Assembly: GCA_029762535.1 (NCBI GenBank) | Contig: JARVGK010000038.1 | Location: 1-30,800, forward strand | From: Thermoplasmatota archaeon | GTDB lineage: Archaea > Thermoplasmatota > Penumbrarchaeia > Penumbrarchaeales > Penumbrarchaeaceae | Direction: 5' to 3' | Length of the DNA stretch: 30,800 nt | Part shown: in pieces, positions 8,503-25,870 of the stretch | How positions within the stretch are numbered: position 1 is the stretch's first letter | Layout of the letters: each line of letters starts with the position of its first letter | Made by a program: the position numbers and the translations under genes | Notes under the pieces: model-generated | What the model was told of the DNA's origin: nothing | Database searches by the model: none | Seen by the model: only the letters and a program-made list of their open reading frames with translations

Positions 8503-9900
8503 TCACGGAACCGGGGGGGACAGACGGATCCCATCTCCGGAGGAGAGGGATCGATCCTGTGCTCCCTCCGAGATCCTCCTGTGGAGGGATCTCAACGCAT
8601 CGACGAGATCGATCCTCTCCACTACAAGATAATAGGCGGTTCCCGTGCCTCCGGATCCCGACATCGATACGGGGATATCCCCCTCTATGAGATCGATAAG
8701 ACATGTTCCCAGCAGGGAGGGGTCTTCCTTCAGCCTCCCGCCCACGATCCCTATCATCGCCAGGTCCTCATCGATCCTTATTCTCCGGATCCCGGCCTCC
8801 TCCAGGGCGAGCATCGCCCTGGGACCTTCGCAGGGATCCAATACGATCCCCACCGAACCATCGGACGAAGAGACGGAATATGGGAATATCCCCCTTGATG
8901 AAAGCACACCGTACGCCGCGCACAGAATGGATGCCGCTTCCTTTCCGGCATCTATGACAATAAGCGACACTCCGTCCCTTGATGCGAGGCTCATTATATC
9001 ACATGGGCCATCCCTCGACCCGACGATCCGCGTCCCTCCGGAATGACCATCGGACATATTCAGGACGCGTATGGGGATCCCGCTGCCTACAAGCGGGGAG
9101 AAGGTCCTGGGATGCAGGACCTTAGCGCCAAAATGCGAAAGCTCGATCCCCTCCTCGAAGGTGATCTCGTCCAACATGTAAGCATCGGGGACGATCGTCG
9201 GATCAGCGGACATGAACCCCCTGACGTCCTTGTAGAGGACCAGCTCCGATGCCTGGACGGAACGGGCTATGACCGCGGCGAGGTAGTCCGAACCGTTCCT
9301 GCCGAATGTCGCGGTCCTCCCGTCATCTAGAACGCCGTAGAACCCAGTTATCACGGGTACTTTCCCTTCCTCCATGGCGGGAATTACCTTTTTCATAAGG
9401 TTTCGTCCTGTCCGCTCCAGGTCCGCCTCGGCGTTTCCTAGCTCCCCCACCGCCGCGATCCCCGCTTCCTCCGAGCTCATCGGGACGGAAACGATGCCCA
9501 TGCGGTTCAGGTATAGGCAAACGAGGCCCACGGAAAGCCTCTCCCCGTATGTGATCGCGTGCTCACGCACCCACAGCGGAACGGCCTCGTCGTCCTCGTC
9601 CAGAAGCCTCCTCAACCTGCCCATCTCCCGCTCCAGCATGCCCTCGAATGCCTCCCTGTCGGAGGGCTCGGTAAGAAGTTCGGAGGCCAAAATGCTGTGC
9701 CTCATCCGAAAATCCGATATGATGGACCTGGACCTCTCCTCCAGATAGGACTTGAGGAGGTCCGTGGAATCCTTGATCGCCGAAAGCACCACCGCTTTCT
9801 TACCTGGGACAAGGGACAGTATCTCCCCGATCCTCCTTATGCCCTCGGGATCCGACATGCAGGACCCTCCGAATTTCAGGACCCTGATACCGTCATTCAT
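8503..9900 (-). CDS. lysC: Aspartate kinase
   Basis: VLKFGGS, GERLS, VPVITGF, TFGRNGSD, KDVRGFMSADP, GAKVLHPRT, ACT-like C-terminus. ATG 9900 overlaps the asd stop. Confidence 0.93.
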   Translation of the reverse strand: MNDGIRVLKFGGSCMSDPEGIRRIGEILSLVPGKKAVVLSAIKDSTDLLKSYLEERSRSIISDFRMRHSILASELLTEPSDREAFEGMLEREMGRLRRLLDEDDEAVPLWVREHAITYGERLSVGLVCLYLNRMGIVSVPMSSEEAGIAAVGELGNAEADLERTGRNLMKKVIPAMEEGKVPVITGFYGVLDDGRTATFGRNGSDYLAAVIARSVQASELVLYKDVRGFMSADPTIVPDAYMLDEITFEEGIELSHFGAKVLHPRTFSPLVGSGIPIRVLNMSDGHSGGTRIVGSRDGPCDIMSLASRDGVSLIVIDAGKEAASILCAAYGVLSSRGIFPYSVSSSDGSVGIVLDPCEGPRAMLALEEAGIRRIRIDEDLAMIGIVGGRLKEDPSLLGTCLIDLIEGDIPVSMSGSGGTGTAYYLVVERIDLVDALRSLHRRISEGAQDRSLSSGDGIRLSPPVP

Positions 9901-10934
9901 CGGATGATACCCTCCTTGAGGCACTGTTCGGCGATGAGAACTGCGTTCCCTGCCCCGCCCCTTATCGTGTTGTTGACCAGGGCGAACGCCCTTAGCATGC
10001 CTTCATCGACCCTGACCCTTCCCACTGAGACCGACATCCCGAGGGGACCCCCTGCGAATGAATCCAGATCCGGCCGGGGCCTGTCATTCTCCTTCCTCAG
10101 CACCAGGGGCCTCTTCGGAGCGGAAGGCAACCCCTCAAGCCCTGTGAACGATCCCATTCTGCGCTTCACCTCCTCAATATCCACACGATCCTTCAAGGAG
10201 GCGGAGAAGGATATAAGGTGGCCGTCCCTGACCCCCACCCTGACGCAGTTGGGAACTATCCTGATCGAAGACCCGACGATCATGCCATCATCGAGCCTCC
10301 CGAGTATCTTGACCGGCTCCTCGATGAGCTTCTCCTCCTCACCGCTGATGTATGGAAGCACCGTTCCAAGCGCTTCCAGGGAGGGAACGCCCGGGTAACC
10401 TGCCCCCGATATCGCCTGATAAGATGAGACGTGAACTGGGCCTTCGAGAAGGTCAGCTATGGGCGCGAGCGCCATGACGAGACCCGTTGTGGTGCAGTTG
10501 GGGTTGGTCGCCAATATTCCTTCTTCCCTGTCGAGAAGCATGGACAGATGCCCCCCATTGACCTCGGGTATGACCAGAGGTACATCCGGATCCATCCTGT
10601 GGAAGCTTGAATTGGATATAACGTGTATGCCAGAATCGGAAAGCTTCCTCTCGATCGAGGCGGCCGCCTCCGAGGGTAGGGCACTGAAAACCATATCGAC
10701 TCCGGACCTCCTCACGCCGGAGAAGGCCCCTTCCGTCATGACGATGTCGGAGGCGGCTCCGGGAACGTCGGGGCCTATCATCCATCTCACCGCCTCCGAA
10801 TAGGGCCTGCCGACACCTTCCCCTGATGAGAAAAGTGCCCCGAGCTCGAACCAGGGATGACCCGAGAGCATCTCAACGAACCTCTGTCCGATTATCCCCC
10901 TGGCCCCCAGAACCCCGCAGCGGACGCGATCCAT
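9897..10934 (-). CDS. asd: Aspartate-semialdehyde dehydrogenase (archaeal type)
   Basis: GARGIIGQ, DVPLVIPEVN, NPNCTT, QAISGAG, RVGVRDGH, NTIRGGAG; AGGTGA SD site. Confidence 0.95.
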   Translation of the reverse strand: MDRVRCGVLGARGIIGQRFVEMLSGHPWFELGALFSSGEGVGRPYSEAVRWMIGPDVPGAASDIVMTEGAFSGVRRSGVDMVFSALPSEAAASIERKLSDSGIHVISNSSFHRMDPDVPLVIPEVNGGHLSMLLDREEGILATNPNCTTTGLVMALAPIADLLEGPVHVSSYQAISGAGYPGVPSLEALGTVLPYISGEEEKLIEEPVKILGRLDDGMIVGSSIRIVPNCVRVGVRDGHLISFSASLKDRVDIEEVKRRMGSFTGLEGLPSAPKRPLVLRKENDRPRPDLDSFAGGPLGMSVSVGRVRVDEGMLRAFALVNNTIRGGAGNAVLIAEQCLKEGIIR

Positions 10935-10940: not shown

Positions 10941-12854
10941 TCACCTACTATTTCCTACACCGGACGCTTTCGCCTTGCGGGGGGCCTTTGCCTCATCCTT
11001 CAATGAGATGTGCCCAATGGACCTGCCACCCCAGCTGACAGCTATCATATCGACCATCAACACCATGCCGGATACCGCGACAAATCCCGGTATTATGTCG
11101 GGTAGCCTGCGGTTCACAGGCGGTGTCAGCCCGGGGATCAGCTCAATTCCCTGGGCGGAACTGAGGGTATCCCTATCGTAGTTGATGAACACCAGAACGG
11201 GGGAGTCGCTCTTGACCCTCATCAACGATCCCCGGGTCATGTTTTCCCTGGAGAGGAAGATGCTGTCCCTTAAGCTCCTGTCAACGGCGATCCTGGGGAC
11301 GGAATCCAGCATGAAACGGTTCTGAGGGTCTCTCAGCGTCCATTCCGGGGGCTGCATGTAATTCGTATCGGAGAGGACCATGTTCATGTAGTAGTAGGAA
11401 TCCTCGGAGAACTCTATGGTCACGGTCTCGTAGGCCTTCATCTGTTTCTTGTAAGGCATGAGTAGAGCGGAGAAGTTCACCTGGACATCGTTGTCATCGC
11501 TGCCGAGGTTCACCACCGTCACATAGGCACGGCTGTAGAGCGGGACCTGGAAATCCGTATCGGCCGGGTATGGGACGAGGCCGTGGGAGTAGAACGTCGT
11601 GACCTTGCGGTTCTTCATCAGGTACTCCTCCCCGGCGATCCTGTTCGCGTAATCCTCATCCAGGTACCACTGGTTGTTGGCGAAGGTATAGACGAAGACG
11701 GGCCTGTTCGATCTGAGGGTTGCCCATTCGAAGGACGAATAACCTCTGAGCTTGTACATCACCTTGAAATCGAAGGTCCTGAACTCGCCCTTCTTGAGCG
11801 TCCCCTTGAAGGATCCCTGATTCCCGTTGGGGTCCTTGAGGTCGATGGTGGCCCCATCCGGCGCATGTACCAATATCTGGCCGAAGGTGGGGAAATGGAA
11901 GTCCCTGCTGTCCTTTCCGAACACCTGGACGAAGTTCTGCCTCGACTGCAGCCCGGCGACTATGGATACGGGCTTGTCCGCGCTTATCAGAACGTGATCG
12001 TCGTCGAAACCCAACTGCTGATATATGGGGTTCCTGCAGTAGGACCAGCCCTCGAACCTGTCAAGCTTCACGGTGAACTCGTCGTTTCGGTCGGAGAAGT
12101 CCCATATCCTCACGGTCGTATGCGCCTCGAGGGCGCTTATCCAGCAATCTCGCGTTATCCTGGTGAAGAGTTTGGAGGTGTAGGCCGAGTATACTCCGTC
12201 CCAGTAGTAGTTGATCATGTCCTGGCCATCAGAGTCCTTTGTTCCGGTCGGATACAGCTTGTGATGCATCACCGTTATCGGGTTGTCGGATGTGATCCGC
12301 ACCGTCCCCGTAAGTATCCTGAGATCGTCCTTGACCAGCCAGCTGTTCAAGGGGATCTCCTGGGATTCGTAAACCCCCATCTTCAGGAACCTGCTGTCCG
12401 ATATCGGGGGTTCAAGATGCTCCAGCCAGTGCATCGAGTGGCCCTCTCTGAGACTCCATGTCCGGCCGGCCGGATCGAAGGTCGCCCCGTCTATCACGGT
12501 CGCGTTGAGCCATTGTATCCTAACATTGGCCCCGTTCTCGTAGGAGAATACCTGTATGCTCGAAAGGTTGGACATTATGTAGTTCCCGGAGCGGTACTGA
12601 TAACCGTACCAGACGGATGGCCTCTCGAGCGATTTGGTCACTGGCGGGGGTACGTAGAAGACGAACTCGGTATTTGTGAAGGCATCGATGTCGGTCGTGC
12701 CGAGGTCGGTGTGCTCGCTCTTCTCCCTGGCCACCCGGATGTTGTCGCTTATCGCCCGGGATATAGGTGAGTCGTAATGCAGTATCTCGGACATCGGCAG
12801 GAACAGCAGTCCTATCACGCAGGCGACCAGCATCACTCCTCTCAACACGGCCAT
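10941..12854 (-). CDS. Double membrane-anchored surface protein B with IgGFc-binding-like beta repeats (637 aa)
   Basis: Hydrophobic N-terminus from ATG 12854, C-terminal TM plus basic tail; repeats ITSDNPITV, ISADKPVSI, LRSNRPVFV, VKSDSPVLV. The family call is by motif resemblance only. Confidence 0.65.
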   Translation of the reverse strand: MAVLRGVMLVACVIGLLFLPMSEILHYDSPISRAISDNIRVAREKSEHTDLGTTDIDAFTNTEFVFYVPPPVTKSLERPSVWYGYQYRSGNYIMSNLSSIQVFSYENGANVRIQWLNATVIDGATFDPAGRTWSLREGHSMHWLEHLEPPISDSRFLKMGVYESQEIPLNSWLVKDDLRILTGTVRITSDNPITVMHHKLYPTGTKDSDGQDMINYYWDGVYSAYTSKLFTRITRDCWISALEAHTTVRIWDFSDRNDEFTVKLDRFEGWSYCRNPIYQQLGFDDDHVLISADKPVSIVAGLQSRQNFVQVFGKDSRDFHFPTFGQILVHAPDGATIDLKDPNGNQGSFKGTLKKGEFRTFDFKVMYKLRGYSSFEWATLRSNRPVFVYTFANNQWYLDEDYANRIAGEEYLMKNRKVTTFYSHGLVPYPADTDFQVPLYSRAYVTVVNLGSDDNDVQVNFSALLMPYKKQMKAYETVTIEFSEDSYYYMNMVLSDTNYMQPPEWTLRDPQNRFMLDSVPRIAVDRSLRDSIFLSRENMTRGSLMRVKSDSPVLVFINYDRDTLSSAQGIELIPGLTPPVNRRLPDIIPGFVAVSGMVLMVDMIAVSWGGRSIGHISLKDEAKAPRKAKASGVGNSR

Positions 12855-12871
12855 GGTCCATCCCCGTCCTT

Positions 12872-15016
12872 TCACTTTCCCTTGATCAACGCGCCCAGCT
12901 TGTCCTTTCCAGTGTAGGTCAAAGTGCCTACGAGTCCCTTCGACCCGTTCGCCACCAGGACCGCCTCCACTCCGAATATCAGGGTCAGGGCCAGTGGAAG
13001 GGGCCAGAAGTTCTCCCCGCCCTGCGACCTCTGTATGGTCGGCTTGACGGATAGGACTATGTCCATGTCCTGGGGCTCGCATGAGTAGTCTCTTGCGTAT
13101 CGGACCATGAGCATGACCTTCTTGTCCGCGTTCACATCCATCATCTGGATCACCGACTCCAGCTCGTCCTGGTTGTCCGGCTCGGTGTCATCGACCTCGT
13201 CGCCGTTGTAATCCTCGTTCGAGTCCACCACGATCCTGTATACATCATACGCATCGAGAGTGGCCTCGGAGGGGCGGTTGTTCAGCCATGTCCCCGTCCA
13301 TCCGACCTTCGTGTCATCCTCCAGGGCTATGATGTATACGAGGCAGCGGTGATGTATGGCGAGGTTCCATTTCTCCATGGCCGCGGAGTAGTCGAAGCCG
13401 CGCTTGAACGTGGAGATCTGCGTCTCGTCGAAGGCGTTGTCGTCGTTCGCCATCCAGAACTCCACCCTGATCGGCCAGTCGCTGATTATCTTGCACCAGG
13501 TGATCTCGGCGATGTAATTGTTGGAGAACGGCCCCGGCGCCATGCTCTTGTAGGTGTACTGCTCACCTGGCTTGATCACGATCGAGACGTCCTCGGTCGC
13601 TTTGTCCTGGAACTCCAGGGTCACGTGGGCCTCGCGCTCGAGCCCCGTTATGGTCAAGGCGGATGAGAGCGGGACCAGGTACCTCGATCCCAGGAATCCG
13701 TATGCCTGTGTGTGGAAGTTGTTGTCCCAGATCCCGCCGTAGATGGTCACGGGCTTCTGGGACCGGACTATCACCCAATCGGCCTCGAAATTGCCCGAAT
13801 CCACGGCCTTCTTTATAAGATCTGATCCCATGAACTCCTTGACCTCTTCCGGGTTCGACCAGTTGAGCTTGTTCCTGTGGGTAGCGTAGTCCAATTCGTT
13901 GTTGTCCCCCGCATCGTCGCCACCGCACCACGTGTCCACCACGAAGTTCGAGGCCCAGACGAAGTTCTCCCAGGCGTTCAGGGTGATCGTCTGGGTGTCG
14001 TCCCCGTCGGAGACGTCGATTATCTCGATCTTGTTGTTATCATCGTAGCTCGCTATCATGAGGTCCCTGTGGACGAACCCGAAGAACTCGTCCCCGTAGA
14101 AGGACCATACGGCATCATCGCTCATTCCGTTCGCGAACCATTCCGTGTTCACACCGTGGGAGACCTCATCGTCCCCATCGTTGTAGCCTCCGTTACCGTC
14201 CATGTCGCAGTCGTCCCAGAGGTCTGGGATCCCGTTCTCGTTCTTGTCTATGTACCCGTCCGTGACTGTCATCTTGGTGACCGTGACCCGGCCCGTGGAT
14301 TCTACTTTTAGTACGCCGTCCCACAGCCACCAGTCCATCGTCGTGTAGAATATCTTGCCCTCGTACTTCCCCAGCGTTCCCTCCCAGAGGACATGGTCCT
14401 TGACCTTCAGGAGGTCGGGGGAGTTCAAGGGCGCCCTTGCAGGGTCCATCAGATCGATCTTATCAGGCTGGTTCTTGTCGGGCTTGCCGTTGTTGTTCAT
14501 GTCCGCGTTGAAAACCGAGCCGTCCTTCCAGCGTATGGTGTTCTCGGGATAGTCCTTCTTGAAATTGTCGGTGAACAGATGTCCGTTGAGGACGGTCACC
14601 TTGATCCTGTTGTCCTTGGCATAGGATCCGATCGAGATCGCTCCTTCATCGCTAATGTAGGTGTCGCCGTAGAACGAGATGCCGCGCCTGGTCTCGCCGT
14701 CGGTCTGGCCGTTGTTGAAATCGTCGTTGTGACCGTTCTCGATCCCCCAGGGGCAGTTCTGCTCGGTATCTGCCTGATCGTATAGCGGGTCTATCGGGCT
14801 CCAGTAGAATATGAACTCGTCGTTGACGAAGGGCGTATATGCGCTGGTCTTCGTGCTTCCCGTTATCTCGTCTATCAGGCGGGCGTCGTGCACCATCACG
14901 TGCGATGACGGCAGCAGAAGGACCCCGAAGAGCATGAACATGATAGAGAAAGCAAGTCCGTAGCTCTTGAGAAACGTGAGCAGTTTCAACTTCGTATCCT
15001 CAGGTATCTTCCCCAT
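12872..15016 (-). CDS. Acidic double membrane-anchored surface protein A, paralogue of B, with Ca-binding-like loops (714 aa)
   Basis: GGTGA SD before ATG 15016; N- and C-terminal TM; VRSQKPVTIYGG, ISDWPIRV, VNADKKVML; DMNNNGKPD, DKNENGIPD, DCDMDGNG. Confidence 0.65.
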   Translation of the reverse strand: MGKIPEDTKLKLLTFLKSYGLAFSIMFMLFGVLLLPSSHVMVHDARLIDEITGSTKTSAYTPFVNDEFIFYWSPIDPLYDQADTEQNCPWGIENGHNDDFNNGQTDGETRRGISFYGDTYISDEGAISIGSYAKDNRIKVTVLNGHLFTDNFKKDYPENTIRWKDGSVFNADMNNNGKPDKNQPDKIDLMDPARAPLNSPDLLKVKDHVLWEGTLGKYEGKIFYTTMDWWLWDGVLKVESTGRVTVTKMTVTDGYIDKNENGIPDLWDDCDMDGNGGYNDGDDEVSHGVNTEWFANGMSDDAVWSFYGDEFFGFVHRDLMIASYDDNNKIEIIDVSDGDDTQTITLNAWENFVWASNFVVDTWCGGDDAGDNNELDYATHRNKLNWSNPEEVKEFMGSDLIKKAVDSGNFEADWVIVRSQKPVTIYGGIWDNNFHTQAYGFLGSRYLVPLSSALTITGLEREAHVTLEFQDKATEDVSIVIKPGEQYTYKSMAPGPFSNNYIAEITWCKIISDWPIRVEFWMANDDNAFDETQISTFKRGFDYSAAMEKWNLAIHHRCLVYIIALEDDTKVGWTGTWLNNRPSEATLDAYDVYRIVVDSNEDYNGDEVDDTEPDNQDELESVIQMMDVNADKKVMLMVRYARDYSCEPQDMDIVLSVKPTIQRSQGGENFWPLPLALTLIFGVEAVLVANGSKGLVGTLTYTGKDKLGALIKGK

Positions 15017-15341
15017 GTTTATCACCTTGGCCTTATCTAGTAAAGGACGGAAATACGATCATAGCCATCTGTTAGTAAATAAAGGTATGGCGGGAGATCC
15101 CCGATTATTGAAATGAGAATATGTACAACATTGTAATTTTATGTAGCCATGAATTATAGGTTCGAACACAGGATAATTGTAAAGAAAAACGGGATAATTG
15201 AACGTCAGATATCCTTTGAAAAACTGGAACCATGCGAAAATAATGATGAGCAAACGCATAAATAGCATAAAAAACAGTTGATTTTTCTGCGAGAATACGG
15301 GACCATCCCGTACGAATGTCGGGATCCACTGAGGTGAGAAG
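15017..15341. promoter_or_regulatory. AT-rich divergent promoter region with tandem repeat
   Basis: AC(A/G)GGATAATTG at 15168-15179 and 15189-15200 (21-bp period); TACAA-CA-TTGTA palindrome at 15124-15135. Confidence 0.6.
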
Positions 15342-15568: not shown

Positions 15569-16495
15569 ATGCACATGGCGAGCGATATCGGGATAATAAT
15601 GGCCCTATACACACTCATAATAACGGGTGTGATCGTCGTCATTAGGTTCGGCGGCGTCGCTTTCAGGCTGCCGATGCAGATCGGCGCGTTCGCCTTTCAC
15701 CGTCTTGGGATATTCAGAAAATTGCCGGGGGCGTGGCACGCTCCGATACCCAGGACCAGCGGTATCACGTGCACGCTCAACTGCCAGGCCTGCGAGCTCG
15801 CGTGGCTCGGATGTCCCATCGGCATGCTCCAGAGGTATGTGATCGACACGAGGCTGCCAATATACGTTTATGGGGTCCTGGTCGCGGCCGGATTGGCCCT
15901 CGGCCGGGCGATATGCGGCTGGCTCTGTCCCTTCGGCCTCATCATGGACCTTCTGAACAAGGTAAGCATTCACAAGTTCAATCCGCCCGAGTGGATGAGG
16001 GCCATCAAGTATTTCTACGTCATCGGGGCGGTAGTTCTGGCCGCTCTGACCGGGATGATATTCTATTGCAGGTATCTGTGTTTCGGGGCGCTTCTCGGGG
16101 TCATACCATACTGGCTCACATGGCATACGGTCAGCGCCACTTGGCTCTTTTTCCACTTGGGCGTGTTCGCGGCCTACGTCGCATTCGGATATCTTACGAA
16201 CGGCAGGGCGTGGTGCAGGTACTTCTGCCCCCTCGGGGCCATACTGTCCCTGTTGAACCCCATCTCGCTCATAAGAAGGAAGTTCGACTGGAAATGGTGT
16301 ACGAAGTGCGGCAGGTGCAAGACCGTCTGCCCGATGGGACTTGACCCCACCAAGGACGATCTCAAGAGCAAGATCGACTGCATCAAATGCGGACGCTGCG
16401 TCACCGAGTGCAAATCCAAGTCCCTCTCCATAGGGACGGTATTCTCGGGAAGCAAGGAAACACACAAGAAGGGTGCCGAGATCCTCACCGATTGA
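15569..16495 (+). CDS. Membrane-bound 4Fe-4S polyferredoxin (NapH/MauN-like)
   Basis: CTLNCQAC...GCPIG, CGWLCPFG, CRYLC, WCRYFCPLG, CTKCGRCKTVCP, CIKCGRCVTEC; several TM helices. Confidence 0.9.
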   Translation: MHMASDIGIIMALYTLIITGVIVVIRFGGVAFRLPMQIGAFAFHRLGIFRKLPGAWHAPIPRTSGITCTLNCQACELAWLGCPIGMLQRYVIDTRLPIYVYGVLVAAGLALGRAICGWLCPFGLIMDLLNKVSIHKFNPPEWMRAIKYFYVIGAVVLAALTGMIFYCRYLCFGALLGVIPYWLTWHTVSATWLFFHLGVFAAYVAFGYLTNGRAWCRYFCPLGAILSLLNPISLIRRKFDWKWCTKCGRCKTVCPMGLDPTKDDLKSKIDCIKCGRCVTECKSKSLSIGTVFSGSKETHKKGAEILTD

Positions 16496-16501: not shown

Positions 16502-17371
16502 TCATCCCCCTCTTATGATGGCTGCCTTGATATGAGATGGAGCGGTCCTGATCATCCTACCCGCCCCTATCGCTCCTATGATAGTACCGGCTCTTAAGGG
16601 ATCGCAAAGTATGACGGTAGCGGGCCCCGTCCCGGAGATCCCCGCCGCAAGGGCTCCGGCATGAAGCGCCCTGACCGCTATCGAGGGATCGAGCCCCATT
16701 GCCGCAGCATAGCAGAGCCCGTTGATGATCATCCCCGCCCTGTGATCGCCAGAGAGGGCAAGATCGTGGGCCGCCTTTATGGCCGGCTCCAGGCCCTTTA
16801 GCCTTCCCACGTCCACTTCGGATTTCCGGATCTTATCCTCCGGGACGTGGACGAGAACGCTCAGCTGCTCGTTGAGGGGATACCTCCTCATTATCCTCCT
16901 CATCAGGTTGTCGGTGACGACCGCCCCACCGTAGTAGCATGCGCAGGCATCGTCGTACGCCCCCGTTATCGTGACCCCTGCCTTGAAGGAGGCCTCGATC
17001 CCGGCGGAGATCGCCTCCTCATCGGAGCATTCCTCGTTCAGGGCCGCGTAGCATGCGAGGACGATCGCGTTCGCGGCCGCGCTCGAGCTCTTCAATCCTC
17101 TTGATATTGGGATGTCGGATAGGGTCCCTATCCGCGCCCCGTACCTGCCTTCGTTCCCGGTCCTTCTCAGGACCTCTCTGACGCATTCGATGGCTAGTTC
17201 GGGGGCCTCTGCCGGATCGCTGCCTATGCTGACCGAGAAGGAGCCGGGATCGTCGTTGAGCCGAACAATGGCCTCCGTCCTGAGGGCGATGCCGAAGGAC
17301 GCGCCCTTGCCTGTGGCGATCCCGTTGACGATGGTCGCGGCCCCGTGGCAGAATGCCCTTCCCTCCTTCAT
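16502..17371 (-). CDS. aroK: Archaeal (GHMP-family) shikimate kinase
   Basis: ATIVNGIATGKG, IPISRGLKSSSAA, AGVTITGAYDDA, SGTGP. Confidence 0.93.
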   Translation of the reverse strand: MKEGRAFCHGAATIVNGIATGKGASFGIALRTEAIVRLNDDPGSFSVSIGSDPAEAPELAIECVREVLRRTGNEGRYGARIGTLSDIPISRGLKSSSAAANAIVLACYAALNEECSDEEAISAGIEASFKAGVTITGAYDDACACYYGGAVVTDNLMRRIMRRYPLNEQLSVLVHVPEDKIRKSEVDVGRLKGLEPAIKAAHDLALSGDHRAGMIINGLCYAAAMGLDPSIAVRALHAGALAAGISGTGPATVILCDPLRAGTIIGAIGAGRMIRTAPSHIKAAIIRGG

Positions 17372-18231
17372 GGGGGCCAGCCTCCTCCGAGCGTTTCGAT
17401 CAGCGCTCTTTTCATAACCTCAACGGGGGCTTTGGACCCCGTCCAGATCTCGTAGGACCGGGCACCCTGCCAAAGGAGCATGTCATGACCCTGAACGGTC
17501 CTTGCTCCGATATCCTTTGCCCTATCGAGAAAACGGGTATGTTTTGGATTGTACACGACATCCATCACGGTCATGCTCTCGTTCAGCAGTTCGGGGTCAA
17601 GGGGAACCTCATCAGGGAATCCGGCCATGCCAAGAGGGGTGCAGTTTATGACAAGATCAAGGGCCTTCATATCCTCCTCCCCTTCCTCGAGGACCCTGGC
17701 ATCGGTCATTTTAGATAGATGGGCCGCAAGCTCCCTGGCCCTAGGGGTCGACCTGTTCGTTATGAGGATGTCCATTCCGCACTCGGCAAGGCAGTATCCT
17801 ATGGCCCTTGACGCGTGCCCCGCTCCTATCAACAGTGCCTTTTTACCCTCGAACGGGATGAACCCGTTCGCTCGCAGGGCGTCCATGGCCCCCCTGCCGT
17901 CGGTGTTGTGGCCGATGAGATCGCCCCTGCGGTTCTCTATGACGTTGACGGCGCCTATGCCCTGGGCATGATCGTCGATCCCATCAAGATGTGCCATGAC
18001 GGCGCTCTTGTGGGGGATCGTCACGTTGATCCCGGATATGCCCATCTCCCTTGCCCCCCGGAGGAAGGCCTCCAGACCCCGCCCGTCTATCCTGAACGCC
18101 AGGTACACTGCGTTCGTTCCGTCGTTCAGGAATGCCGCGTTGTGCATGGACGGGGACATGGAATGCCCAACGGGATCGCCTATCAGGCAGTAAAGGCGGG
18201 TCCCCGCATCGATCCTATGGGTCGTAACCAT
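17368..18231 (-). CDS. aroE: Shikimate dehydrogenase
   Basis: GDPVGHSMSP, NVTIPHK, GAVN, GHNTD, GAG, NRS, DVVYNP, MLLWQG. Confidence 0.94.
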   Translation of the reverse strand: MVTTHRIDAGTRLYCLIGDPVGHSMSPSMHNAAFLNDGTNAVYLAFRIDGRGLEAFLRGAREMGISGINVTIPHKSAVMAHLDGIDDHAQGIGAVNVIENRRGDLIGHNTDGRGAMDALRANGFIPFEGKKALLIGAGHASRAIGYCLAECGMDILITNRSTPRARELAAHLSKMTDARVLEEGEEDMKALDLVINCTPLGMAGFPDEVPLDPELLNESMTVMDVVYNPKHTRFLDRAKDIGARTVQGHDMLLWQGARSYEIWTGSKAPVEVMKRALIETLGGGWPP

Positions 18232-18919
18232 CCCTCCGCAGTATTGACCAGAAACACTTCAACGTCCTTATGTCCAACTGATCGACGGCCGATGTATCGT
18301 CCATGGGGCAATAAACGATCTCGGACCCCGATAGTGGAGCCAGTATCCTCGTTATATGGCCGAAAGGTCCCATGCCCATGATCGAGCATCTCATACCCTC
18401 ATCATGAGCGGTACAGGCCAGCTCAAGTATGGCACGGGAGTCCTCGGCGGAGCGGGTCATGAATGCAGCCTTGATGATGTTCGCCCCCGCCCTGGCGCAG
18501 CGGTCCACGATCGCCCTCATATGATCGAAGGGAGGTGTGGAGGAATGGTCGTGATGGGAGATGATCACCTCAACCCCCGAGGACCTCGCCCTTTCCACGA
18601 GGGGATCCCTGAATCGTTGGGACATGCCCAATTCCACATCGATGAGGTCCGGCCCGCTGTCGATGATGCGCATCAGCGCTTCCGAGGCCGCCTCATCCCC
18701 GCCTTTGAAATGACCACCGTCCTGCCCGGACCTGAGCGTTATCACGCTTCGCATCCCGATCCTTCCCAACCCTTTCTGATGGGACGGGCTCCATTCGATG
18801 CGGTCCTGATGGTCCAGCCTGATCTCGACCATATCGGCCCCTAATGATCCGCATGCCGGGGCCAGTTCAAGCGCCGCCTGGGCGCTCCGTTGTCGAAGCG
18901 TCACGCAGATCGATGTCAT
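18215..18919 (-). CDS. aroD: Type I 3-dehydroquinate dehydratase
   Basis: VEIRLD, TLRS..DGG, IDVEL, IISHHD, IIK, MGMG..G..TR. Confidence 0.88.
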   Translation of the reverse strand: MTSICVTLRQRSAQAALELAPACGSLGADMVEIRLDHQDRIEWSPSHQKGLGRIGMRSVITLRSGQDGGHFKGGDEAASEALMRIIDSGPDLIDVELGMSQRFRDPLVERARSSGVEVIISHHDHSSTPPFDHMRAIVDRCARAGANIIKAAFMTRSAEDSRAILELACTAHDEGMRCSIMGMGPFGHITRILAPLSGSEIVYCPMDDTSAVDQLDIRTLKCFWSILRRDGYDP

Positions 18920-18931: not shown

Positions 18932-19966
18932 TCACAGCTCCTTTATGCTCTCCTTGACCTTCGTTCCGAAATGCCTTCCGCCCTCGGAGACCATCAATGA
19001 TACCTCATCACCTTTTTTCAGCTCTACAAGGGAAACGGCCTTTCCCCCGGAGACGAGCCTCACGGTCTCCGCGTTCTGAAGTATGATATTGTAGATATCA
19101 CCGCCGTGCTCGGCCGAAACCAGGACCAGCGGCCTCTTCTCTATCTTCAACCTGCCGATGATCACGCTCCTCGCGTTGCCCTTGGAGTCCACGGCGAGGA
19201 GCTCATCCCCTGTCCTGAGATCGGATAGATAAGGCGTTCTGTCCCCGGCGGCTAGGGCATAGGATTGGACCGATCCAGCGTTCACCCTGAACGGCCTTGC
19301 GCTCGCGTACTCCGAATCTATGGACTCCGAGTGGACCAGGAACAGGCCGGAGGACCGCGAGCCGATCAGCATCCCCTCTCCGGTCCTGAGCATGGAGCAT
19401 GTATCTATGCAAACCCGATCCCCTTGGCCCAGCGACCTGATCTCCACAACGCGGGCCTGGACCAGGTCCACACGTTCTGCCCTCAATTCGTCCAGGATAC
19501 GCCTGGAACGTATCACGTCCTCTGGGGAGGCGGGTTCAAGCAGTATCCCGTCGACCCCCGCCTCCAGCGCACCGAAGAACAGGGGGATCTCCTCCGGATC
19601 GCTGACCTGTGCCACCAGATCGGTCCCGCTGCCCTGGAAGGCGGCTATCAGGTTCTCCATCGGGATCACCTTCCAGTCATCGACGCTGACGACGACCATA
19701 TCCGCCTTCCCCGCGAGGCGGGAGGCCTCGGTCTCGTCGTCCTTGCCGGATATCCGCAGCATCATTCCTTCCCTGCCATCGACAGATATTGACCCATCCT
19801 TTACGGATATGATCTGGAACCGGCCTATCCTGAGAAATGATTCGATGTCCTCTTCCCTCACGGCTATTGACAGGAGATCGCTCTCCAGGGCCGCGGTGAG
19901 TATGGCCTTTCTCTCATCTCTGCCCTGCGCAGTGTCAGCTCTGACCCAGACGAACTTGTCCTTCAA
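18932..19966 (-). CDS. aroB': 3-dehydroquinate synthase type II (archaeal)
   Basis: DWKVIPMENLIA, GDRVCIDTC, GEGMLIGS, RPFRVNAG, YLSDL, ILQNAETVRL, GRHFG. Confidence 0.94.
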   Translation of the reverse strand: MKDKFVWVRADTAQGRDERKAILTAALESDLLSIAVREEDIESFLRIGRFQIISVKDGSISVDGREGMMLRISGKDDETEASRLAGKADMVVVSVDDWKVIPMENLIAAFQGSGTDLVAQVSDPEEIPLFFGALEAGVDGILLEPASPEDVIRSRRILDELRAERVDLVQARVVEIRSLGQGDRVCIDTCSMLRTGEGMLIGSRSSGLFLVHSESIDSEYASARPFRVNAGSVQSYALAAGDRTPYLSDLRTGDELLAVDSKGNARSVIIGRLKIEKRPLVLVSAEHGGDIYNIILQNAETVRLVSGGKAVSLVELKKGDEVSLMVSEGGRHFGTKVKESIKEL

Positions 19967-20766
19967 CCCTTACCCTCCAGTCCCTCGAGGGCCTCCTCCA
20001 CATCGTATCTATCGATCACGACCCTCCTTATGGCCCTGACCATCTTCGTGGGGTCGGGATGCTGGAAGACGTTCCTGCCAATGGATACGCCCTTCCCGCC
20101 CGCGGTCATGGCCTCCTTCACCATCTCCAGGACCTGGCGGTCGGTCTCCATCCTCGGGCCGCCGGCTATCAGGACCGGGACGGGGCACCCTCTTGTGACC
20201 TCCCGGAACGTATCGATGTCCCCGGGATAGTTCGTCTTGATGATATCGGCCCCGAGCTCCGCCCCGAGCCTAGCTATGTGCTTTATCGAATCGGGGTCCA
20301 GCTCGTCCTTGATGTTCTTGCCCCTGGTGTACATCATCGCCAGGAGCGGCACCTGCCATTCCCTGCAGGATCGGGACACCTCTCCTAGGTCGAAGAGCAT
20401 CTCCCTCTCCGTCTCCGCGCCCACGTTGATATGTACCGACACCGCGTCGGCTCCCAGCCTCAAGGCCTCCTCGACGGAGCTGACCAGTATCTTCGCGTTC
20501 GGATAGGGGCCGATATGGGTGCTGGCCGATATGTGAAGGATCAGCCCGATCTTCCCTCCGACATCTTTGAGGCCCTCGCCGACCAAGCCCTTGTGTATGC
20601 TCACGGAGGTGGCCCCTCCCGCGGCGACCTTGTTTATAGTGCTTCTTATGTCCATCAAACCCTTTATCGGCCCCACGGTCACGCCGTGGTCCATCGGCAC
20701 CAGTACGAACCTTCCCGTCCTCATGTGTCCGATGCGCCTCATCCTTATCTCGTGTCCGTTCGTCAT
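19963..20766 (-). CDS. aroA': 2-amino-3,7-dideoxy-D-threo-hept-6-ulosonate (ADH) synthase, DhnA-type aldolase
   Basis: PMDHG, HKG, GADAVSVHIN, MMYTRG, GADIIKTNY, IAGG, GRNVFQH; adjacent to DHQ synthase II. Confidence 0.9.
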   Translation of the reverse strand: MTNGHEIRMRRIGHMRTGRFVLVPMDHGVTVGPIKGLMDIRSTINKVAAGGATSVSIHKGLVGEGLKDVGGKIGLILHISASTHIGPYPNAKILVSSVEEALRLGADAVSVHINVGAETEREMLFDLGEVSRSCREWQVPLLAMMYTRGKNIKDELDPDSIKHIARLGAELGADIIKTNYPGDIDTFREVTRGCPVPVLIAGGPRMETDRQVLEMVKEAMTAGGKGVSIGRNVFQHPDPTKMVRAIRRVVIDRYDVEEALEGLEGKG

Positions 20767-20785
20767 CTCTCTCACGCTCCATACG

Positions 20786-21712
20786 TCATGTGACTCCAGC
20801 TATGAAGGTCAAGGCCAGCACGGCCGTCAGAGTAAGGAGGTATCCTATGTGCAGCTTTCTCGCCGAGGCTTTCGTGTACCTCCTGAATATGGATATGCAA
20901 AGGTAAAGACATATCGCCTCCCACGTGAGAACGAGCAGGAGGACCGCCGCCTGCACCACAAATTGCGTTTCGTGTATGAAGAAGTACGAATAGGCCCACA
21001 GCGAGATCCCGATGACCGAGAATACGAAAGAGGCCCCCGATGCTGCCTTGTTCCCCAGAAGGACCGAGGTCGTTATCTTCCCCGAATCCCTGTCGTTCTC
21101 CAGGTCCCTTAAGTCCTTCGCAAGCGTCTCCGCGATCCCGACGAACAACACCATCACGGCCAGGAAGTAGAGGCCGTTCAGTATGTTCTGATAGGGGATC
21201 GATTCGTACCTGACGAGATACGCAGATATCGTGAGATAGTACAGTATGGCGAAGAGGACCCAGAACAGCTGGGATACGAAGGGGCGCCCGTTCATCTTCA
21301 AGGGGGGCAGCGAATACTGATGGGCCAAAAGGACCAATGACAGGGTGAATATGAACACATAGATGTCGAGCATCAGGGCGAGGAGAAGGCCCAACGCGAA
21401 AAGGGAATATGCCTGTATCCTTGCCGATCTCATGCTGACGGTCCCCTTGCAGAGGGGGCGGTCCTTTCGCGAGCTCTCCGTGCTGATACGGTCGGATGCG
21501 ATGTCGCCAATATCGTTGAGGGTACATGCCCCGGCATCCGTCAGGAGGGAGGTCAATATGAACAGCAGGAAATGGACCCGGGGAAGATGCTGTGTCAATA
21601 CCGCGTAGCTTGCGAACCCTATGAATATATCGAACCAGATGAGCTGTATGGGGCGCATGAGTATGAAATGCCCCTTGATCCTCTCAAGGAGGCCGAAGCC
21701 GGATCCCGTCAA
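20786..21712 (-). CDS. UbiA-family membrane prenyltransferase
   Basis: N-terminal LMRP, NDIGDIASD..., RPL..G, second motif KDLRDLENDRDSGKITT; polytopic. Confidence 0.9.
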   Translation of the reverse strand: MTGSGFGLLERIKGHFILMRPIQLIWFDIFIGFASYAVLTQHLPRVHFLLFILTSLLTDAGACTLNDIGDIASDRISTESSRKDRPLCKGTVSMRSARIQAYSLFALGLLLALMLDIYVFIFTLSLVLLAHQYSLPPLKMNGRPFVSQLFWVLFAILYYLTISAYLVRYESIPYQNILNGLYFLAVMVLFVGIAETLAKDLRDLENDRDSGKITTSVLLGNKAASGASFVFSVIGISLWAYSYFFIHETQFVVQAAVLLLVLTWEAICLYLCISIFRRYTKASARKLHIGYLLTLTAVLALTFIAGVT

Positions 21713-21715: not shown

Positions 21716-23032
21716 TCACGCCCCCTCTATGATCTCGCCTTTGCCGCTTATCTCGTCGACCACCCTCGATAGGGCCTTTCCCGGCCTGACTTCGCGGTAG
21801 TCATATAGCGTCCCGGGTTCAACGATGTCAACGGTCGAGGGCACGCCCAATTCCTTCTGGAAATTCCTGCGTATCCCTTCATTCAATTCGGCGGCCTTGC
21901 CCCTGTGCTCGATCTCTATGTGCAGGCCCTCGCTGCGGACGGTTATTCGATACCACGGGCCGTTGATATGGGACCTGTAGAGGATATCCTCGAGCTCTAT
22001 CGGGTAGATGTCCCTCCCATTTATCCTGATAAGGGTCCTCTTCCTGCCGAAGATCTCCATCGATGGAAGGGGAAGGCCGCATGGACAGGGATCGTCATGT
22101 AGGGCTATCACATCGCCCGTGACGTATCTGAGGATCGGCTGGGCCTCCCTCCACGTGGGGGTCACTATTGAATGCCCTTTCTCCCCCGGGTCCGCCTTCG
22201 TTCCATCCTCTCTGTAGACCTCGGTGTACATGGCGAACGAGGGCAGATGAAGGACGTTATTCCTGCAAGGGATCGCCACCCCGACCTCGTTCTGACCGAG
22301 CAGGGACAGCGCCCTGCAGCCATACAGCTTACCCAGGACCTTCGCCCTGGAGGAGGATAGTGGCTCAGCACCGGAGACGATCAATCGTATCCCAAGCGAT
22401 GTCGGGTCGATCCCCCTGTCCATGAGTATGTTGGCGTAGGAGAACGCGTCCGTTGCGACCGAGCCCAGTATGGTCGGTTTGAGCCTGAGCAGGGTATCGA
22501 CGACCTCCTCCGGAGGGTACATGTTGTTCCTCGTCCCCATGGGGATGATCGTCACCCCCCTTTTCTGGTTTATCATGTCCGCCATCCTCCCTGCGAGGGT
22601 CCTGGTGTACGGATAGCAGAGGGCGACGACGTCCTTAGGGGACATCATATCCTGGAAGACCGGGAGGCTCACGGCCATCCCGACGCTGCGCTCTATCTCG
22701 TCTCGGGTCACCCACAGCGGCACGTGGCCTCCCGTGGTCCCGGAGGTCTGTGAATAGATCATGCACTTCTCCCCCGGCCTGACGGCCAGGGTGTCGTAGG
22801 GTCCGGCCTCCACGAGCTCCTCCCTCGTTGTCGGGGGGACCATCTCGTTGAAATCGCTCAAGGTCTTGATCCTGTCCGGGACCACTCCGGCATCCTTGAG
22901 CTTCCTTGCATAGAACCTGCTCTTGTAGGAATATTTTATAGCCCGCTTCAGCCTCTTGAGGACCATCTTATCGCTGTTGGCGTACCTGAGAAGCCCCGGA
23001 TGCTTCTTCAGAACATACGCTTTTAGGTCCAC
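21716..23032 (-). CDS. PaaK / coenzyme F390 synthetase-like adenylate-forming enzyme
   Basis: QTSGTTG P-loop, SGAEP, LGQNE, PILRYVTGD, CPCG, FGR, IYPIELE. Confidence 0.88.
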   Translation of the reverse strand: MDLKAYVLKKHPGLLRYANSDKMVLKRLKRAIKYSYKSRFYARKLKDAGVVPDRIKTLSDFNEMVPPTTREELVEAGPYDTLAVRPGEKCMIYSQTSGTTGGHVPLWVTRDEIERSVGMAVSLPVFQDMMSPKDVVALCYPYTRTLAGRMADMINQKRGVTIIPMGTRNNMYPPEEVVDTLLRLKPTILGSVATDAFSYANILMDRGIDPTSLGIRLIVSGAEPLSSSRAKVLGKLYGCRALSLLGQNEVGVAIPCRNNVLHLPSFAMYTEVYREDGTKADPGEKGHSIVTPTWREAQPILRYVTGDVIALHDDPCPCGLPLPSMEIFGRKRTLIRINGRDIYPIELEDILYRSHINGPWYRITVRSEGLHIEIEHRGKAAELNEGIRRNFQKELGVPSTVDIVEPGTLYDYREVRPGKALSRVVDEISGKGEIIEGA

Positions 23033-23050: not shown

Positions 23051-24115
23051 TCAAGTCTTGAAGTCGTATCTCAACCGCTCCTGCCTTGGAACGAGCGAAT
23101 CGTGGTCCAGGATCCCCGATATCATCAGATGATCGACCGTGACGATGGCGCTCACCGCCTCTGCGACCACGAGGACCCTGGGGGTGTAGTTCGCATCGAA
23201 CCTGCCCTCCGTCGATATGGTGGCGTTCTCCATTTTTGTCAGATCAACGGTGTCCTGAAAGGACAGGACCGAGGGAGTGGGCTTCACAATTGCCCTGAAG
23301 ACGACCGGCGGCCCGCAGGTGATGCCCCCGAGAACGCCCCCGGCCCTGTTCGAGGCGGGGGCGACGATGCCGTTCTTGACCCTGATGGGGTCGTTGAACT
23401 CGGTCGCTTTCATCTTCGCGGCCTCCCTGCTGGAACCGAGCTCGAAGGATTTGATACCGGGAATGCTCAATATCCCATGCCCCAGGTCCGCATGGAAGCG
23501 GTTGAAGGCAGGTGCTCCGAGCCCCGGAGGCAGTCCTTCTATCCGGACCTCGATGATGCCTCCGGTGGCATCCTCCTCCTTCGCGGACGTCTCCGCCAGC
23601 CTCTCGATCTCGGATCGGAGGTTGGAGTCAGTGATCGGTCTACCACCAAGCTCCACGATCGAGCTTCCTACCCTCACGTTCCTTATGGAGCAGAGGCTTC
23701 TGGCCACACCCCCGGCGGCTATGATCGGTGCCCAGGTCCTGCCGCTGGCCCTGGACCCGCCCCTCCAGTCGACATGGCCGTATTTCATCCTGTACGCCAG
23801 GTCCGCATGTCCGGGCCTGGGCCTTGACATTATCTTGAGGTACTTGTCGCTCTCGACGTTCGAGTTCCTTATAATTATCGATATCGGCGTGCCGATGGTC
23901 TCACCCTGGAACACGCCGCTCAATATCTGGAATCTGTTCTCCTCCACCCGCCTCGTAAGAACGGGATAGGGAACGTCACGATCCAGTTCCTCCCTGATGA
24001 TGTCGGGCCCCATCTTCAAACCGGCAGGGCAGCCGTCTATGACGCAGCCCATGCTGTCGCCGTGGGATTCACCCCAGGTCGTCACCCTGAACATGTGGCC
24101 GATCGTATTTCCCAC
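23051..24115 (-). CDS. aroC: Chorismate synthase family protein (divergent motifs)
   Basis: TTWGESHG, GTPI, RPGHAD, RASGRTW, SIPGIK, GGVLGGIT, KPTPS, GRFD..YTPR. Confidence 0.88.
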   Translation of the reverse strand: MGNTIGHMFRVTTWGESHGDSMGCVIDGCPAGLKMGPDIIREELDRDVPYPVLTRRVEENRFQILSGVFQGETIGTPISIIIRNSNVESDKYLKIMSRPRPGHADLAYRMKYGHVDWRGGSRASGRTWAPIIAAGGVARSLCSIRNVRVGSSIVELGGRPITDSNLRSEIERLAETSAKEEDATGGIIEVRIEGLPPGLGAPAFNRFHADLGHGILSIPGIKSFELGSSREAAKMKATEFNDPIRVKNGIVAPASNRAGGVLGGITCGPPVVFRAIVKPTPSVLSFQDTVDLTKMENATISTEGRFDANYTPRVLVVAEAVSAIVTVDHLMISGILDHDSLVPRQERLRYDFKT

Positions 24116-24124: not shown

Positions 24125-24625
24125 TCACCCCTGGGGATTGGGTGCGAAGATCAGCCTCTTCTCCTTTGAGGACCCGGGCTTCTCTACGACGAGGAACTGG
24201 CCCTGGAAAGCCAGCTCCAGAAGTATGACGAGGATCGGGGAGACGATCGCGGTCGCGAAGAAACCGATGCTCATCTGCCATACTGTGGATATGCCCATGA
24301 ACAGGGCGATCGCTATGATCAGGACGAATATCGGAACGTAGATGACCAGTACCGTTCGGCCTTCGAGGACCACGCCTTTCTTGGGGTTCCCTTTTGCCCT
24401 GAACATGTTGAGAAGCGTCAGCCCCGTCATCGTCAGCAAACCAAGGACCACCCCGAGGACGATGAAGACTATCTTGTAATCGTAATAGTTGGGGAACTCC
24501 CTCGCGTAGTTCCTCAGCATCAGAAGCGAGACAATGGTGTAGAGCAGCGGCAGGACGCAGCCCTTGGCAATGCGCTTCCAGTACCTGTAGCGATCGCCTT
24601 CGATCTCCGGGTTGTCCGAGGTCAT
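24125..24625 (-). CDS. Hypothetical 4-TM membrane protein, first gene of the aro/ubiA run
   Basis: Four hydrophobic stretches; 9 nt from aroC; TATA-like AAAACCTTAATTA on the - strand at about 24722-24734. Confidence 0.7.
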   Translation of the reverse strand: MTSDNPEIEGDRYRYWKRIAKGCVLPLLYTIVSLLMLRNYAREFPNYYDYKIVFIVLGVVLGLLTMTGLTLLNMFRAKGNPKKGVVLEGRTVLVIYVPIFVLIIAIALFMGISTVWQMSIGFFATAIVSPILVILLELAFQGQFLVVEKPGSSKEKRLIFAPNPQG

Positions 24626-24783
24626 TTCCGTCCCATCCCATGAACGTTCAAAAGGGCCGGATCCCAACTTGGATGTATACACCTGACCCGTCCCTTTTTT
24701 AGAACAATTGGGACATGCAGGTAATTAAGGTTTTGACCTGGGTTATCTCCTGGCGAACTGAAGGCGGATGGGGACTCGAAGGG

Positions 24784-25749: not shown

Positions 25750-25870
25750 GTTAGCTTCACCTTTGAGCCCCCGTAAAAAGTCCTGCCTCATCAAAATTTG
25801 CATGGGGGATCCCATCGGAAAAGGTTTTATCCCATTCGCAGATGAGGATACCCTCGATCCAAGATAAATC

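Follow-up and report, generated by a model that had tools for sequence, protein, structure and literature searches.

What does a chorismate synthase do in an operon that carries the genes for making shikimate-3-phosphate (S3P) and none for converting it to 5-enolpyruvylshikimate-3-phosphate (EPSP)? The question is raised by a 30,800-nucleotide stretch of a Thermoplasmatota archaeon genome (GenBank assembly GCA_029762535.1, contig JARVGK010000038.1, positions 1 to 30,800; hereafter, the window), in which a gene at 23051-24115 encodes a protein of the AroC (chorismate synthase) family that we call AroCv. Our sequence comparisons support the view that AroCv is no ordinary archaeal AroC but belongs to a conserved paralogous clade, which has lost a substrate-binding arginine invariant in canonical enzymes; across genomes, EPSP synthase tracks canonical AroC and not the variant. 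We propose, with moderate confidence, that AroCv is a flavin mononucleotide (FMN)-dependent lyase of S3P, or of an S3P derivative made by a neighboring ligase, with a rebuilt substrate pocket, and that it feeds this ligase and a UbiA-superfamily enzyme for the synthesis of a membrane aromatic lipid. The gene and its diagnostic segments are located as follows:

23051..24115, minus strand: AroC-family paralog AroCv, 354 aa, type A of the variant clade, assigned from profiles, alignment, and an AlphaFold 2 (AF2) model.
23963..23986, minus strand: LDRDVPYP, residues 44-51, with Asp47 (23975-23977) in place of an invariant Arg (R39 of the Streptococcus pneumoniae enzyme).
23936..23938, minus strand: Asn60, which replaces a near-invariant canonical Asp.
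23732..23752, minus strand: RASGRTW, residues 122-128, with both arginines kept and Trp128 for Thr.
23192..23206, minus strand: GRFDA, residues 304-308, with Arg305 and the catalytic Asp307 kept and Phe at His306.

By profile, fold, and catalytic residues, AroCv is a member of the AroC family. It matches PF01264 over its full length (profile positions 1-327 of 327) with 339.8 bits against a cut-off of 27, and it scores above the equivalog cut-offs of both TIGR00033 (303 bits; cut-off, 212) and NF003793 (329 bits; cut-off, 321). An AF2 model built on 53 homologs had a mean predicted local distance difference test score (pLDDT) of 94.4, and the top 20+ Foldseek matches to this model were all chorismate synthases, including the EPSP- and FMN-bound structure 1QXO (1qxo_A) with a template modeling (TM) score of 0.83. 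The motifs quoted in an original prediction made for this DNA were each found in the translation where they had been placed, namely GESHG at residues 15-19, LDRDVPYP at 44-51, RPGHAD at 100-105, RASGRTW at 122-128, KPTPS at 278-282, and GRFDA at 304-308. AroCv is the sole AroC-family gene in the window genome.

The residue changes were judged against a canonical set of 135 representatives. To obtain them, 1.8 billion proteins were searched exhaustively with HMMER, and each cluster at 50% identity contributed one sequence; the family alignment of 163 sequences comprised these and members of AroCv's own group. AroCv keeps 32 of the 38 columns with a conservation of 95% or more among the canonical representatives, including H18, R56, R100, H103, R126, D307, and R313. 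It thus retains (i) the catalytic residues His18, His103, and Asp307 (H10, H110, and D339 in the S. pneumoniae enzyme), together with the glycine-rich motifs of the FMN site, as well as (ii) the phosphate-binding arginines Arg56, Arg126, and Arg305. The six near-invariant columns altered in AroCv are R47D, D60N, G121S, T128W, G229S, and G237A. Column 47 is Arg in 135/135 canonical representatives and Asp in all 25 variant-clade members tested; the Asp at column 60 (of R-x-E-x-D) is found in 133/135 canonical representatives, and the Thr at column 128 (of RSSARET) and the Gly at column 121 are each found in 134/135. R47D, D60N, and T128W (or T128C) are common to every member of the variant clade. 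In addition, the substrate loop that follows Asp47 is two residues shorter than in canonical enzymes and contains no equivalent of the R45 arginine, as judged by HMMER alignment to solved AroCs.

The original prediction had placed Asp at the equivalent of S. pneumoniae R39 by manual alignment, and this was borne out by the HMMER alignment to solved AroCs, the 163-sequence alignment, and the motif register. It had also named three altered motifs. The change in L-x-RR(R)PG, which removes the invariant Arg, is real; the differences in RSSARET and GRHDP are partly ordinary in archaeal AroC, where canonical proteins encoded beside EPSP synthase also lack RSSARET (reading GGGxFSGRxT instead) and one has GRFDP. 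The Phe that replaces His306 is likewise present in 4/135 canonical representatives. R47D, D60N, T128W, and G121S, which are never or almost never canonical, are therefore not substitutions common in ordinary archaeal AroC. The 1QXO paper reportedly assigns R39 to the enolpyruvyl carboxylate of EPSP. A literature search for residue-level EPSP contacts in 1QXO found only a docking paper on a fungal enzyme (PMC11633415); in its model, one of EPSP's two carboxylates is bound by the arginine that corresponds to column 47. We mapped the R46 of this published model onto the column-47 Arg by its spacing to T54/T55. Among the arginines of the model, the equivalents of R103, R129, R354, and R362 remain in AroCv, and only the R46 equivalent has become Asp.

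In a FastTree phylogeny of the 163 sequences, the 25 sequences with D47 and three close relatives with other residues at this position formed a single clade (SH-like support, 99). Type A, which is found in Thermoplasmatota metagenome-assembled genomes (MAGs) and comprises about 90 clusters at 90% identity, is marked by RD(V/I)P(Y/F)P, SGRTW, and GRFDANYTPR and by a C-terminal tail that is conserved. Type B shares 47-53% identity with type A, reads RDVPD..LGTPRGE and SGREC, and has representatives in Asgard archaea and in bacteria, among them the Ozemobacteraceae. Fifty-one columns (R46, D47, N60, and 48 more) do not vary among 28 members of the clade, whose identity falls as low as 43%, and this pattern indicates purifying selection on the new residues. 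Every variant-clade protein with a source name is labeled simply "chorismate synthase," and no relevant text came up when the open literature was searched by phrase for AroC-like enzymes or paralogs of chorismate synthase. A locus scan of genome contigs with a variant-only alignment was saturated by canonical genes, with 80/80 loci reading RR(K/R)PG and none being variant. One type-A protein (P0011; 68% identical, on a 21-kb NCBI contig) is labeled "[Eubacterium] cellulosolvens"; because all other named type-A sources are Thermoplasmata MAGs, this contig looks like a contaminant or a mis-binned sequence.

If the pocket has changed, is EPSP still available to the enzyme? The window genome (G000 in our numbering; 102 contigs, 93.4% complete) was surveyed alongside its relatives and a 401-genome sample of the phylum; the surveyed genomes are related MAGs, so that the counts given here do not represent independent events. 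No EPSP synthase was detected in G000, either as a PF00275 match or by tblastn with the EPSP synthases of relatives, which leaves none encoded elsewhere in this assembly. Type A was present in ten surveyed genomes, eight of which carry neither an EPSP synthase nor a second AroC (G000, G010, G013, G015, and G020 in family f1; G070, G082, and G112 in family f30), with no PF00275 match in any of the seven besides G000. The remaining two (G033 and G052) have an EPSP synthase with a canonical AroC directly beside it. An EPSP synthase was found in 5/5 archaeal genomes with a canonical AroC, and it adjoins that gene in the three genomes where both coordinates were compared (G033, G028, and G052). The bacterial type-B genomes G041 and G402 similarly carry a Gram-positive-type canonical AroC and AroA, so that both paralogs coexist in all four of the tested variant-carrying genomes with EPSP synthase (archaeal G033 and G052, bacterial G041 and G402). 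EPSP synthase tracks canonical AroC because the variant-only genomes are without it and the dual-paralog genomes have it; the co-occurrence of the motif variant with EPSP synthase absence, raised in the original prediction, thus holds in every variant-only genome. An assembly gap was considered as the reason for this absence and rejected, since the gene is missing from 8/8 variant-only genomes and present in 5/5 with canonical AroC. Two genomes of the same class (G026 and G028) carry EPSP synthase and canonical AroC but no 3-dehydroquinate (DHQ) synthase II, and presumably enter the shikimate pathway otherwise than by the 2-amino-3,7-dideoxy-D-threo-hept-6-ulosonate (ADH) route.

Enzymes that would use chorismate are also missing from G000, where we found no Chorismate_bind (TrpE/PabB/MenF-type), CM_2, PDT, MqnA-type (VitK2_biosynth), or IGPS (TrpC) gene; UbiC, CM_1, and FkbO-type enzymes were not searched for. 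It follows from the missing TrpE-type, CM_2, PDT, MqnA-type, and IGPS genes that AroCv cannot be used for aromatic amino acids in the window organism. AroCv thus lacks four features tested as marks of EC 4.2.3.5, namely (i) the invariant Arg, (ii) two pocket residues, (iii) a genomic source of EPSP, and (iv) consumers of chorismate. Taken across genomes, the independence of AroCv from EPSP is well supported by these comparisons.

The same evidence bears on the possibility that AroCv is an ordinary chorismate synthase, supplied with EPSP by an unrecognized, non-homologous enolpyruvyl transferase and drained by unrecognized chorismate-using enzymes. Such an enzyme would explain the full-length family match above equivalog cut-offs and the intact catalytic residues, and the incompleteness of the MAGs leaves room for it. 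Nevertheless, it would have to work with Asp in place of an Arg that no canonical representative has lost, it gives no reason for a paralog to coexist with canonical AroC and EPSP synthase in four genomes, and it must account both for eight variant-only genomes without a PF00275 match and for the presence of 0/5 chorismate-pathway enzyme families in G000. We therefore consider it improbable.

AroCv is the second of nine minus-strand genes that are separated by gaps of at most 18 nt or joined by short overlaps, and that together form an operon. Listed in operon order after AroCv's upstream neighbor, with the conserved flanking genes at the end, the features are:

24125..24682, minus strand: small multi-span membrane protein, 185 aa, of no family, the first operon gene; beside AroCv in all Thermoplasmatota clusters examined.
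21716..23032, minus strand: PaaK-like adenylate-forming ligase, 438 aa, third operon gene; nearest solved relatives, the aryl-acid ligases AjiA1 and NatL2.
20786..21712, minus strand: UbiA-superfamily prenyltransferase, 308 aa, with about 8 transmembrane segments; closest to members like digeranylgeranylglyceryl phosphate (DGGGP) synthase and ChlG.
19963..20775, minus strand: ADH synthase (AroA'), passing ADH-synthase equivalog cut-offs.
18932..19966, minus strand: DHQ synthase II (AroB'), PF01959.
18215..18919, minus strand: type I 3-dehydroquinate dehydratase (AroD), by profile match.
17368..18231, minus strand: shikimate dehydrogenase (AroE), by profile match.
16502..17371, minus strand: archaeal GHMP-type shikimate kinase (AroK), which makes S3P, by profile match.
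15569..16495, plus strand: NapH-like membrane polyferredoxin with Fer4_5 and 2x[4Fe-4S] domains; conserved in the cluster and beside type-B AroC in bacteria.
12872..15025, minus strand: surface protein A, 717 aa, anchored in the membrane at both its N- and C-terminal ends; conserved in the cluster.
10941..12857, minus strand: surface protein B, a paralog of A; conserved in the cluster.
8503..10934, minus strand: aspartate-semialdehyde dehydrogenase and aspartate kinase (asd/lysC), which supply the aspartate-semialdehyde substrate of ADH synthase.

The shikimate genes of G000 are each present as a single copy, and all of them lie inside the AroCv operon. The gene content of the cluster (polyferredoxin, two surface proteins, small membrane protein, AroCv, ligase, UbiA, and shikimate genes) is kept in four Thermoplasmatota families, as is the order of the genes for the 185-aa protein, AroCv, the ligase, and UbiA. 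Within family f1, DHQ synthase II was found only in the five cluster-bearing genomes and in 0/19 others, so that the whole upstream shikimate pathway exists in this family only within the AroCv module. G033 and G052 each have one shikimate kinase and one DHQ synthase II, both located at the variant cluster, with EPSP synthase and canonical AroC encoded elsewhere. It follows that the early enzymes of the cluster are genuine and that S3P is the last intermediate common to both branches.

Outside the Thermoplasmatota, an Asgard contig carries a type-B AroC directly followed by a 49%-identical PaaK-like ligase, with ADH synthase, AroD, and AroE nearby. Two bacterial contigs, from a metagenome and a MAG (L022, 9126-15088; L035, 810-5197), carry DAHP synthase, type-B AroC, a Fer4_5 polyferredoxin that is 35-37% identical to that of the window, and a distant PaaK-like ligase. 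On L022, the ligase is followed by a fusion of a seven-heme cytochrome c and a cytochrome b; on L035, genes for an FG-GAP protein and for a squalene-hopene-cyclase-like protein come after the conserved ones.

This conservation also bears on whether AroCv could be a decaying or noncatalytic relic of an aromatic amino-acid pathway in an auxotroph, a reading to which the lack of aromatic amino-acid branches in G000 lends some color. A relic would hardly be expected to have an intact reading frame, 51 columns held invariant across its clade at identities as low as 43%, and a structure model predicted with such confidence, nor to sit in a multi-gene cluster conserved in four families, one of which retains its whole upstream pathway only together with AroCv. 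We regard this explanation as highly improbable.

What, then, would AroCv catalyze? Because its FMN motifs, the two histidines responsible for protonation, the Asp that services N5, and the arginines that a published docking model puts at the phosphate are all kept, AroCv would retain the reduced-FMN machinery for the core chemistry of the family, namely anti-1,4 elimination of the 3-phosphate. The substrate pocket, on the other hand, would be rebuilt for a substrate without the enolpyruvyl carboxylate: a cationic site appears to have been lost, with (i) Asp at the R46 equivalent of the published model, (ii) a lid loop without basic residues, and (iii) a bulky Trp (Cys in type B) in the RSSARET segment. 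The canonical Asp at column 60, which is Asn in AroCv, is a probable partner of the invariant Arg. The simplest reading of these changes is that the substrate of AroCv has one carboxylate fewer than EPSP and, as no EPSP synthase is available, that this substrate is S3P.

On this basis, the ADH synthase, DHQ synthase II, AroD, AroE, and AroK of the operon would produce S3P, which, since no EPSP synthase was found, would pass directly to AroCv, either as such or as a derivative made by the adjacent PaaK-like ligase. Elimination of phosphate would yield 3,4-dihydroxycyclohexa-1,5-diene carboxylate, or an activated form of it, which would readily aromatize to a hydroxybenzoate- or protocatechuate-type head group. 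This diene carboxylate is a known chorismatase product and an intermediate of the cyclohexanecarboxylate pathway. The ligase would then activate the carboxylate, and the UbiA-superfamily enzyme would attach an isoprenoid chain, giving a membrane-bound, probably redox-active aromatic lipid for use with the NapH-like polyferredoxin and the two surface proteins. We chose this account as the best explanation of what was observed, namely the clade, the residue changes, the conservation of the cluster, and the absence of EPSP synthase and chorismate consumers, and from these we infer the substrate, the order of steps, the product, and the role.

Two of the neighboring enzymes were examined for what they add to this scheme. 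The nearest solved relatives of the ligase, AjiA1 and NatL2, adenylate ring carboxylic acids. The UbiA-family protein falls far below every equivalog cut-off (TIGR01474, 31 bits; cut-off, 275), its best matches being generic or DGGGP-synthase-like at 70-84 bits, and there was no UbiA/MenA equivalog match of the kind that would mark a 4-hydroxybenzoate polyprenyltransferase. A prediction of a complex between AroCv and the PaaK-like ligase scored 0.00; it gave no verdict and was counted neither way.

The order of steps is where a second explanation enters. In it, the PaaK-like enzyme acts first, making an adenylate, thioester, ester, or amide at C1 of shikimate or S3P, and AroCv eliminates phosphate from a derivative that is neutral at C1, with Asp47 replacing the Arg that normally binds the ring carboxylate. 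The gene neighborhoods suit this order, the AroC variant adjoining a PaaK-like ligase in archaea and in bacteria, and so do the adenylation of ring carboxylates by AjiA1 and NatL2 and the expectation that an Asp near a free carboxylate is unfavorable. The published model, moreover, has the invariant Arg binding only "one of" the two carboxylates (PMC11633415), so that the one bound could be that of the ring. Yet AroCv retains the RPGHAD arginine, to which the other carboxylate binds, R39 is reportedly assigned to the enolpyruvyl carboxylate in the 1QXO paper, and in two bacterial loci (L020 and L034) the type-B gene has no adjacent ligase. We regard prior action of the ligase as possible but rather unlikely.

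Our preferred reading, elimination from S3P or its ligase-made derivative followed by transfer to an isoprenoid, has several observations weighing against it. First, R313, the partner of the invariant Arg in the published model, is retained in AroCv; if that Arg binds the ring C1 carboxylate, R47D probably points to a C1-modified substrate and hence to the ligase acting first. Second, the variant-only genomes are all incomplete MAGs (72-93%) and come from two families only. Third, in the Ozemobacteraceae genome (locus L020) and the related bacterial genome G402 (locus L034), the type-B gene lies beside neither a ligase nor a polyferredoxin. Finally, the cluster contains no aromatizing, hydroxylating, decarboxylating, or methylating enzyme, which makes a quinone end product conjectural.

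The constant presence of a NapH-type polyferredoxin, joined in bacteria by a multiheme cytochrome, suggests a membrane redox role for the product, and the surface proteins and the polyferredoxin together look like an extracytoplasmic redox or binding module. The polyferredoxin might, however, simply supply reduced flavin. It might also drive a net-redox reaction, in which AroCv would use its electrons for reductive loss of phosphate (e.g., to 4,5-dihydroxycyclohex-1-ene carboxylate) or for some other reduction. This would fit the conservation of the polyferredoxin beside the gene in archaea, its position directly downstream in two bacterial contigs, and the continuation of one of these with the multiheme cytochrome c/b fusion. 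However, canonical chorismate synthase also depends on reduced FMN without net redox, so that a reductant of its own would be expected in any case; the polyferredoxin sits in the membrane and could just as well work for the surface proteins; and Asp307, the N5-base residue, is kept. We accordingly give a net-redox AroCv little probability. Taking the phospho-lyase scheme in its widest form, we tentatively propose an unrecognized, chorismate-independent exit from the shikimate pathway, in which an FMN-dependent phospho-lyase of S3P or acyl-activated S3P that descends from chorismate synthase, a ligase, and a UbiA-superfamily enzyme would make a new prenylated aromatic, quinone-like lipid for electron transfer involving the polyferredoxin and surface proteins (in bacteria, a multiheme cytochrome) in uncultured Thermoplasmatota, Asgard archaea, and some bacteria.

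The surface proteins A and B are about 19% identical to each other and have no Pfam match, and the AF2 model of B was poor (pLDDT, 52). A search of the ESM Atlas for look-alikes of the surface protein and of the small membrane protein gave only unnamed hypotheticals below 0.9. The open reading frame of protein B extends to 713 codons (start, 13082) and would overlap the end of the protein A gene by 210 nt; because its hydrophobic signal-anchor begins at Met 12857, translation likely starts there (638 aa) and not at 13082.

Several other features lie elsewhere in the window. A gene at 24784-25815, immediately upstream of the operon and present there in G000, G010, and G015 only, encodes a short-chain dehydrogenase/reductase (SDR)/epimerase-family protein whose best match is D-erythronate dehydrogenase-like (115 bits, below cut-off), and which could be a lineage-specific tailoring dehydrogenase or unrelated. 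A tRNA-Val (TAC) at 25871-25943 separates the cluster from a gene for a Kelch-repeat protein (26289-27599), and an open reading frame at 25891-26292 that overlaps this tRNA is probably not a gene. A DsbD-like membrane protein of 500 aa is encoded at 27612-30102 together with a protein of thioredoxin fold, suggesting extracytoplasmic thiol-redox maintenance. At the other end, window positions 1-2000 have a GC content of 39%, versus about 55-59% elsewhere, and contain a DDE_3 transposase gene (42-794) and a NosD-like beta-helix fragment (1266-2039); this stretch was probably inserted or is of foreign origin.

The chorismate synthases are regarded as a family with a single function, and each of its members is annotated accordingly in databases; AroCv appears to be a new functional variant of this known family within an undescribed, conserved gene cluster. 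If this is true, S3P would be a new branch point in a textbook pathway, and reconstructions of metabolism in which these archaea are given part of aromatic amino-acid synthesis would need correcting. The clade would also serve as a natural experiment in adapting chorismate synthase's unusual flavin chemistry to a different substrate. It would point, moreover, to an aromatic compound in the membrane, perhaps a carrier of electrons, in uncultured archaea that are abundant in sediments and whose way of making quinones is not understood.

Among known systems, the closest is AroC itself (EC 4.2.3.5; PF01264, TIGR00033; 1QXO, 1UM0, and 2O12), with which AroCv shares its fold, FMN-site motifs, and catalytic and phosphate-binding residues. 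It differs from AroC in Asp47, Asn60, Trp128, a shorter and non-basic substrate loop, and a conserved C-terminal tail, as well as in forming a separate clade for which neither an EPSP synthase partner nor chorismate consumers were found, a canonical copy being present where EPSP synthase is. Chorismatases and chorismate lyases (FkbO, Hyg5, XanB2, and UbiC) yield 3,4-dihydroxycyclohexadiene carboxylate or 3-/4-hydroxybenzoate as starter or acceptor units, which is the class of compound predicted for the AroCv route. These enzymes, however, differ in fold and use chorismate as substrate, so that they depend on EPSP synthase and AroC, whereas the AroCv route would bypass chorismate; prenylation routes fed by chorismatases or UbiC thus resemble it in logic and not in enzymes. 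The cyclohexanecarboxyl-CoA pathway (AnsJKLM/ChcA, Streptomyces collinus; omega-cyclohexyl fatty acids of Alicyclobacillus) is chorismate-independent, starts with a 1,4-conjugate elimination, and uses a coenzyme A ligase. It thus resembles the proposed route as a branch from the shikimate level that combines an elimination with a ligase, but it is bacterial, contains no AroC homolog and no prenyltransferase, and leads to a different end product.

GriI/GriH-type clusters for 3-amino-4-hydroxybenzoic acid (3,4-AHBA; BagB/BagC/BagE, NatL2/AjiA1) likewise pair an aryl-acid ligase of the PaaK-like kind with homologs of ADH synthase and DHQ synthase II, and GriI/GriH-type identities were considered for the two enzymes of the window. 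They were rejected on two grounds: the proteins score far better as ADH synthase, whose cut-offs the aldolase passes, and as DHQ synthase II (400 bits on PF01959, just below the NCBIfam equivalog cut-offs, versus 179 bits for the GriH-type match), and the G033 and G052 homologs are the only copies that can feed the canonical branch. Since these single copies must feed canonical EPSP synthase and AroC, the early enzymes of the AroCv cluster make dehydroquinate and not AHBA; unlike the AHBA clusters, moreover, the AroCv cluster continues with AroD, AroE, and AroK. Finally, the UbiA/MenA quinone prenyltransferases offer a precedent in that a membrane enzyme of the UbiA superfamily has its gene next to those for the synthesis of an aromatic acid, whereas the enzyme of the AroCv cluster is nearest to the O-prenylating, DGGGP-synthase/ChlG-like members of the superfamily and not to the 4-hydroxybenzoate or 1,4-dihydroxy-2-naphthoate (DHNA) prenyltransferases.

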